Shown in pieces: positions 5,083 through 5,110 of a stretch of DNA of 64,000 nt. Origin of the DNA: Patescibacteria group bacterium. GTDB lineage: Bacteria > Patescibacteriota > Minisyncoccia > Phycocordibacterales > Phycocordibacteraceae. Below the pieces are notes generated by a model. That model searched no databases. It was not told the origin of the DNA and was given only the letters and a program-made list of their open reading frames with translations. Every line of letters starts with the position of its first letter. The first letter of the stretch is position 1. The DNA is taken from contig SCTS01000007.1 of the NCBI GenBank assembly GCA_004322365.1, positions 18,266-82,265 of the forward strand. The letters are read 5' to 3'. Position numbers and translations under genes: made by a program.

Positions 5083-5110
5083 GTATAATTTAACGGTCGT
5101 TAAATTATAC
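5083..5110. promoter_or_regulatory. 13-2-13 perfect palindrome GTATAATTTAACG-GT-CGTTAAATTATAC containing TATAAT on both arms; putative operator/promoter of 4438..5058
   Basis: Perfect inverted repeat 25 nt upstream of the ORF start. Near-identical to the palindrome at 53880-53915. Confidence 0.6.

Follow-up and report, generated by a model that had tools for sequence, protein, structure and literature searches.

Dispersed intergenic palindromes of Patescibacteria and their association with a minimal PaaX-like gene family

Patescibacteria (CPR) have tiny genomes with very few recognizable regulators, and to our knowledge very little has been established about their transcriptional control. A 64,000-nt stretch of one such genome (the whole of the DNA analyzed here, referred to as the window) contains two near-identical long palindromes located ahead of two unlinked genes, which raises the question of what these sequences are and which protein, if any, acts on them. 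A preliminary description took them for a shared operator, with the ORF beside one copy as the candidate gene for a repressor of both. The presence of the two palindromes is confirmed, and part of the interpretation stands: that the two share a protein-binding site is plausible, is the best reading and is likely, and the proposed regulator and the proposed regulon size are wrong. The analysis ties a well-delimited DNA site, about 40 bp long, to one small protein family, and thus points to a directly testable regulator-site pair.

The two palindromes and their neighbors

The source genome is small, with a G+C content of about 45%, and the closest relatives of the window among the loci compared are Paceibacterota/Parcubacteria MAGs. 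The window contains rplJ-rplL, five tRNA genes and a 23S rRNA gene (1-2751, minus strand) that extends past the window edge; no 16S rRNA was found by Rfam elsewhere in the window, including the region upstream of the 23S gene, and the rRNA genes may therefore be unlinked. The features surrounding the palindromes are listed in Table 1.

Table 1. Coordinates of the palindromes and adjacent features in the window
Feature	Position	Strand	Remarks
Neighboring ORF, 188 aa	4438..5004	-	ATG 5004; weak ArsR/SmtB-like wHTH and uncharacterized C-terminal half
-10-like box GGTACAAT	5012..5019	-	7 nt before ATG of 188-aa ORF
Palindrome copy 1, full extent	5076..5117	.	perfect 13-2-13 core 5083-5110
Bidirectional intrinsic terminator after rplL	5194..5233	.	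GC-rich, ordinary, separate from palindrome
RibD_C/DHFR-like gene	53309..53842	+	stop 34 nt before copy 2
Palindrome copy 2, full extent	53877..53918	.	perfect 17-2-17 over 53880-53915
CofE-like gene (F420_ligase family)	53943..54650	+	start 24 nt past copy 2

On re-reading the sequence, both palindromes are perfect: copy 1 is GTATAATTTAACG-GT-CGTTAAATTATAC and copy 2 is TATAGTATAATCTAACG-AT-CGTTAGATTATACTATA. As described previously, TATAAT is present inside every arm of both, and both are followed by ATTATACTATACAG, the latter because ATTATACTATACAG belongs to the right arm of the palindrome. Copy 1 reaches its full extent once a single bulged G is permitted, the outer arm re-pairing past the 1-nt bulge, and its half-sites are TATAGGTATAA (with one inserted base) and TTATACTATA, separated by a 16-bp spacer; its orthologues have a perfect CTGTATAGTATAAT...ATTATACTATACAG and a perfect 20-2-20 form, CTGTATAGTATAATTTAACG-RY-CGTTAAATTATACTATACAG. 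Copy 2 is an exact match to TATAGKATAA-N16-TTATMCTATA, which is the invariant part of the site in the clade of the window (two 10-bp half-sites located 16 bp apart); the spacer is mostly palindromic as well, with the form T-YTA-ACG-RY-CGT-TAR-A.

A degenerate pattern allowing for up to three mismatches has two matches in the whole window, copies 1 and 2, and none in 100 dinucleotide-preserving shuffles of it; no copy is expected by chance, and no further degenerate copies were found in the window with either the core or the half-site pattern at up to three mismatches. Neither palindrome matches any Rfam family at the gathering threshold, and the sole match in a permissive Rfam scan around copy 1 is the neighboring terminator hairpin. 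Both are predicted to fold as stable single-strand hairpins (as RNA, -18.6 to -18.8 kcal/mol and z of about -6 to -7). The scan found no sense-strand intrinsic terminator at the window palindromes, the single call being antisense at copy 2, and no sigma-70-type -35/-10 pair overlaps them, -10-like hexamers being present in both arms.

Copy 1 has the rplL terminator on one side and the 188-aa ORF promoter on the other. Copy 2 takes up most of a 100-nt gap ahead of the CofE-like gene and, because the RibD_C/DHFR-like gene ends shortly before it, lies between co-directional genes; its spacing to ATG 53943, previously given as 28 nt, is 24 nt at full extent. The window encodes a second CofE-like (F420_ligase) paralogue at 38833-39438 (minus strand), 38% identical to the product of 53943-54650, and two CofE-like genes in one small genome are unusual.

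The preliminary description had the product of ORF 4438..5058 regulate its own gene through copy 1 and the distant CofE-like gene through copy 2, in a small regulon of two genes. Several features bear on this model. First, the ORF almost certainly starts at ATG 5004 and not at TTG 5058, because its homologues are all about 188 aa long and a conserved GGTACAAT precedes this ATG by 7 nt; the gap from copy 1 to the start codon is thus 71 nt rather than 25 nt. Second, the GGTACAAT box is conserved in all aligned orthologous loci and in two palindrome-free loci (L042 and L047), with a variant box, GGTACACT, in the palindrome-free L168; the box implies a short-leader or leaderless transcript that is independent of the palindrome. 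Since the ORF has this separate box about 60 nt away, copy 1 does not overlap the -10 that is likeliest to be used, as a repressor site had been supposed to do. Third, the winged helix attributed to the product holds up as an ArsR/SmtB-like match, although a weak one (E 0.001 to 0.008), and the product has no match in Pfam.

Fourth, the association of this ORF with the palindrome is confined to the clade of the window. It adjoins a palindrome in the window as well as in L011, L028, L029 and L045, from four related genomes, and this adjacency together with the weak winged helix is what speaks for the two-gene model. More distant orthologues in the same rplJ-rplL-ORF-MscS synteny (L042-L044, L047 and L168) have an ordinary terminator and no palindrome, and among the 120 listed metagenome matches just one locus (L158) has a homologue of the 188-aa ORF beside the site, and this locus agrees with the JBBAAE locus L011 in coordinates and score. 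Finally, a genome-wide motif search of the kind that the preliminary description suggested found many unrelated sites in sister genomes. The exact core is present at 8-13 unrelated intergenic sites in each, some of them between convergent genes, so this is neither an operator private to two genes nor a two-gene regulon, and the constant partner of the sites is a different gene, of a PaaX-like family described below. The copy-number and phyletic tests already contradict the two-gene model, and we regard it as extremely improbable.

Two further stretches flanking copy 1 are conserved. The spacer between copy 1 and the ORF (5005-5075, minus strand) is conserved even where the ORF orthologue is just 73% identical in protein; it has T-tracts every 9-10 nt or so and then GGTACAAT, 7 nt from the ATG, a pattern suggestive of curved DNA upstream and of an mRNA with no leader or almost none. 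On the other side, between copy 1 and the rplL terminator, there is a purine-rich stretch (5118-5193, plus strand) that is kept in three sister genomes and not in L045, and that has no match in Rfam; if the palindrome were to fire rightward, the result would be a terminated RNA of about 110 nt.

Distribution and symmetry of the site family

The sequence ATAATNTAACGNNCGTTANATTAT, with the central dinucleotide left free, was scanned against 185,579 genomes, one per species. It is present at 41 loci, of which 38 are listed as Patescibacteria-type MAGs or flank-identical contamination. Chance or contamination seems to account for a few hits, namely a Thiobacillus locus, a Haloplasma locus in which the match is intragenic, and a 'Simkania' contig that has the same flanks as a Parcubacteria locus. 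The central dinucleotide is purine-pyrimidine in all matches except that of Haloplasma. Exact core matches number 13, 10 and 8 in the sister MAGs JBBAAE01, JAGOSG01 and VMHB01 (Paceibacterota), and two in each of three remoter Patescibacteria MAGs; most lineages apparently have two or three strict copies per genome, corresponding to a pair bracketing one gene plus a few others. The looser pattern ATAATNNNACGRYCGTNNNATTAT, run on metagenome contigs and viral contigs, matched at least 120 metagenome stretches, showing that the family is widespread in metagenomes, and no viral contig. A phage origin was considered and rejected (no viral-contig matches for the site pattern and no PHROG hits), as was adjacency to tRNA genes as a general feature, a single site being near a tRNA-Leu gene. 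Literature searches with the motif strings of the site, and for PaaX with CPR, found no report; the site and the protein-site pairing are without description in Rfam or the literature searched, which, as the outcome of a limited search, is not proof of novelty.

Every copy in the Patescibacteria-type loci is intergenic. The flanking genes in the species scan, which we recognized from their sequences and take to be ordinary housekeeping genes, include gltX, pheS, glmS, fmt, murG, polA, parB, recR, alkA, ahcY and genes for a HolA-like protein, RNase R, a DnaQ-like exonuclease and a NUDIX hydrolase. Among the gene contexts of 36 sites, 23 are co-directional, 8 convergent and 5 divergent, with two of the divergent calls being artefacts of a spurious ORF opposite rplL. 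Sister genomes share several orthologous site positions, including those of the window copies (L011, L028 and L029 for copy 1, L008 for copy 2). The finding of only two copies in 64 kb fits a picture of many sites per genome because the other flanking genes lie outside the window.

Across unrelated lineages, members of the family are also present next to DNA-repair genes: uvrA/uvrB (L055, L076/L080/L111, L096, L124 and L130), polA (L075/L136 and L013/L017) and recR (L001). This hints at a repair-related regulon, although the cases are few and not every one of these sites is palindromic throughout. A LexA/SOS box was rejected as an explanation, given weak statistics and a site much longer than a LexA box; the site core has AAC-N4-GTT in common with Gram-positive SOS boxes.

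The sites are symmetric, about 36-42 bp in overall length with a median palindrome of 38 bp. Symmetry was tested in an ungapped alignment of the 147 distinct sites among the matches listed, at mirror positions outside the fixed letters. Mirror cells are paired in 76.5% of cases, compared to 61% in shuffles and 32-43% when partner columns are slid, and the covariation score is 0.399 versus 0.142, a value reached by none of 500 shuffles; the two positions immediately beyond the core are paired in 87% of sites, with all four Watson-Crick pair types represented. Symmetry across the 147 sites is thus far above chance. Arm variation is chiefly between lineages, with copies inside one genome having the same arms, and several further features stand out. 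First, in the JAWVGZ genome (L045 and L173) the half-sites are unchanged and the spacers differ (TATGACGACCGTCATA versus AATCACGGTAGCGATT), one spacer having a non-palindromic center. Second, two half-site variants are combined in L172 to give hybrid, non-complementary sites. Third, there are within-genome variants that alter both arms symmetrically, such as TATAGC...GCTATA and TTTAAT...ATTAAA. Fourth, GC-rich stems lengthen the palindrome at some loci, where flanking A- and T-runs add to a terminator-like appearance; T-runs are present on 17% of site sides family-wide compared to a 7% background, so the terminator look is limited to a minority of copies. The asymmetry of G-U and A-C mismatches, which bears on RNA versus DNA pairing, gives mixed signals, with too few oriented imperfect copies.

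These observations bear on whether the palindrome could itself be the active element, as a source of outward- or inward-facing -10 boxes on both strands or as a hairpin terminator, with no dedicated binding protein. TATAAT is found in both arms, with TATACT read in the outward arm, the outer arm in another clade is TGATAYAAT (an extended -10) located directly before leaderless PaaX-like genes, and T-runs follow some copies. However, the TTTAAT...ATTAAA variant loses the key A of the -10 box while keeping its symmetry, there is no -35 at the proper spacing, and the 188-aa ORF has a promoter box of its own. Moreover, the ordinary terminators of this genome, exemplified by that of rplL, are GC-rich and their sequence is not conserved, and this explanation leaves the invariable bracketing of one gene family unaccounted for. 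We therefore consider it very improbable.

A PaaX-like gene bracketed by the sites

There are seven loci in which two copies of the site lie 480-740 nt apart, and the gene between them always belongs to one family of proteins of about 190 aa, with similarity to PaaX. Among the matches listed for the pattern-selected loci, this is the top recurrent neighbor, with 27 adjacent ORF records that span 12 outer-arm types, compared to at most six adjacent ORF records for each other neighbor family, and 20 of the 22 PaaX-like ORFs have a strict site match within 300 nt. All 24 distinct PaaX-like genes examined have a palindrome of 36-48 bp on both sides, upstream and downstream. These include the eight PaaX-like genes at seven loci selected by the protein only (L168-L174), some of which have differing central letters (TCCTATAGGA, AGCTATAGCT, ACGCTATAGCGT and the non-palindromic ACGGTAGC); in L173 the bracketing copies are in mutually inverted orientation, and the gene neighborhood is partly conserved. 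There is no PaaX-like gene in the window by tblastn. One is present in the nearest sister genome (L036), with an upstream site nearly identical to window copy 2. The contig L171 has two PaaX-like genes (9165-9740 and 16096-16662), each with a palindrome type of its own (TCCTAYAGGA and ACGCTATAGCGT), which suggests parallel protein-site pairs of different specificity in one genome.

The PaaX-like proteins are 177-205 aa long and combine a winged helix at the N terminus with a Cas2-like PaaX_M domain. The match to Pfam PaaX_M (PF20803) is strong (E 6e-20 to 1e-23), and there is no match to the PaaX_C effector domain or to Y1_Tnp. The NCBIfam PaaX and Cas2 models match in part: scores for the PaaX equivalog are 27-48 bits, its cut-off being 264, and for Cas2 the match exceeds the cut-off of the model. 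The best sequence match is the E. coli PaaX structure 8a39 (phmmer E 7e-4, residues 50-150), and this is also the best Foldseek match (E 1.6e-7) to a predicted model with a mean pLDDT of only 66. Next in the fold search come winged-helix folds (AspA, SqrR, PadR and MarR), which cover the N-terminal half, and Cas2/VapD folds, which cover the C-terminal half. The Cas2-like FDI motif has an Asp that is invariant in the family and absent from E. coli PaaX, and therefore leaves room for a catalytic role. The family is large (412 representatives at 50% identity with E <1e-30, and 2,729 with E <1e-10), and its public annotation as 'Cas2' or 'phenylacetic acid degradation repressor' is wrong. A defense system was also considered and rejected: PADLOC gave partial Cas2 matches only, and no cas1 gene or CRISPR array is listed in the protein-selected loci.

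There are similarities to PaaX itself. The operator reported for E. coli PaaX is a 39-bp inverted repeat, TGATTC-N27-GAATCA, and PaaX represses its own promoter; those PaaX proteins that have been characterized act as repressors, and a dimerization motif is how their Cas2-like domain is described (PMC9493321). The family described here has the two N-terminal domains of PaaX. Its putative sites are of similar geometry, spanning 36-42 bp with a 16-bp spacing between 10-bp half-sites, and each of the 24 PaaX-like genes examined has one upstream. There are also clear differences. The proteins are about 190 aa compared to 316 aa and are without the C-terminal phenylacetyl-CoA effector domain, no paa catabolic genes appear in any PaaX-like neighborhood listing, the gene has a site on both sides, the clade of the window has many extra sites at housekeeping genes, and the FDI Asp is kept where E. 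coli PaaX lacks it.

Binding sites, hairpins or chromosomal landmarks

The reading that we favor, with little better than even confidence, is that the sites are bound by a minimal PaaX-family dimer acting as a local repressor or roadblock. Both window palindromes would be members of a genome-wide family of sites, each with two half-sites 16 bp apart, and a protein comprising a winged helix and PaaX_M, but no effector domain, would bind them as double-stranded DNA. This protein would be encoded elsewhere in the genome by a gene that itself lies between two copies of the site, and once bound would probably repress or block transcription locally. The constancy of half-sites with differing spacers, and the hybrid sites, fit protein recognition better than base pairing, and together with the approximately PaaX-like geometry favor a dimer on duplex DNA that contacts two widely spaced half-sites. 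We infer the binding, the duplex rather than hairpin form of the bound DNA, and the regulatory outcome; the protein is linked to the sites through gene-neighborhood association. In the clade of the window the candidate regulon would include gltX, pheS, ychF, parB, holA, polA, recR, an exonuclease gene and the CofE-like gene, among others.

Several features weigh against this reading. First, at least 8 of the 36 sites lie between convergent genes, where a promoter is unexpected. Second, ordinary autoregulated repressors do not typically have a site on each side of their own gene. Third, the variants in which both arms change symmetrically are not predicted by a dimeric binder alone, and hairpin selection or inter-arm conversion is therefore needed to account for them. 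Finally, there are the terminator-like extensions of some copies, the invariant FDI Asp, and the lack of a sigma-70-type -35/-10 pair at the window sites. The convergent sites, stem extensions, symmetric variants, bracketing and FDI Asp thus keep alive a second possibility, in which the palindromes would act as DNA or RNA hairpins (stabilizers of mRNA 3' ends, terminator tops or cruciforms) and the bracketed protein would be a nuclease that maintains, processes or spreads them in the manner of a REPtron.

This possibility gains from analogy with REP/RAYT systems, in which the palindromes are likewise dispersed and extragenic with lineage-specific sequences and some copies at terminator positions, and in which a single-copy gene likewise lies between two of them. 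The sites here are multi-copy, strictly extragenic and found in all three gene-orientation contexts; the bracketing (24 of 24 genes, with mutually inverted copies in L173), the strength of pairing and covariation, the stable predicted hairpins and the Cas2 match above the NCBIfam cut-off are all consistent with it, and palindromes flanking genuine Y1-transposase genes are present in the same lineages. There are, though, important differences from REP/RAYT. The partner protein does not belong to the HUH/Y1 transposases, there is no 5' GTAG tetranucleotide in the arms, and copy numbers are low (2 to about 16 in general, and apparently 2-3 strict copies in most genomes). Also weighing against it are the repressor function and dimerizing Cas2-like domain of characterized PaaX proteins, the conservation of site positions between sister genomes and of part of the PaaX-like gene neighborhood, the tolerance of hybrid half-sites and a non-palindromic spacer center, the absence of copies from the viral contigs, and the fact that no signs of recent mobility were seen. 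We judge a role as hairpins with a nuclease partner to be unlikely, though far from negligible; if true, it would define a new kind of palindrome-maintaining gene. A more specific version, which we think rather unlikely, is a new REPtron-like system in which a Cas2-fold protein with the FDI Asp, and not an HUH transposase, would recognize hairpin palindromes and cut or copy them, thereby keeping the arms symmetric and seeding new intergenic copies. This would represent a previously unknown palindrome-associated gene class, with a free-standing Cas2-like domain coupled to palindromic-repeat recognition.

A third possibility, which is quite improbable, is that the sites, like those of parS/ParB, matS/MatP or NBS/Noc, serve to structure the nucleoid, to insulate or to segregate it, rather than in gene-specific regulation. 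As in those systems and that of AspA, there would be a handful to tens of palindromic sites and one dedicated protein. About 10-20 sites per genome with placement independent of gene orientation, a site upstream of parB, the uneven distribution of hits among the contigs of a MAG, and the weak resemblance in fold searches between the N-terminal domain and the AspA centromere-binding winged helix could be accommodated in this way. But parS, matS and NBS sites tolerate coding sequence whereas the sites described here are strictly intergenic, far longer, unrelated in sequence and associated with another protein family, and most lineages apparently have only the two gene-bracketing copies and a few others. 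The comparison with parS was made by eye against what we take to be its 16-bp consensus, TGTTNCACGTGAAACA, and shows no resemblance.

Several other palindromes are present in these genomes. A family with the sequence CAAGGTCSGACCTTG, different from that of the PaaX-associated sites, flanks a Y1_Tnp gene (IS200/RAYT-like; 1028-1729) in L171, at 998-1010 and 1754-1766, and looks like a genuine REP/RAYT-type system in Patescibacteria; solo copies are present in L020, L023, L029, L036 and L169, which include sister genomes of the window, and there are none in the window. A further unrelated family is represented in the window by a perfect 21-2-21 palindrome at 33695-33738, CCCCCACACATCCCTAATTCG-CA-CGAATTAGGGATGTGTGGGGG, and its core CCTAATTCGNNCGAATTAGG is also present in two sister-genome loci, at L023:4279-4298 and L036:1672-1691, each about 100-130 nt from a palindrome of the PaaX-associated family. 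The window also contains a 23-1-23 palindrome, TCCGCAAATACAAAATGGCGCC-T-GGCGCCATTTTGTATTTGCGGA, at 59517-59563, which starts within the 3' end of a tRNA-Ser gene (59434-59521), and a 15-5-15 palindrome, CTATTCTACTTGCAA-ATAAA-TTGCAAGTAGAATAG, at 42635-42669.
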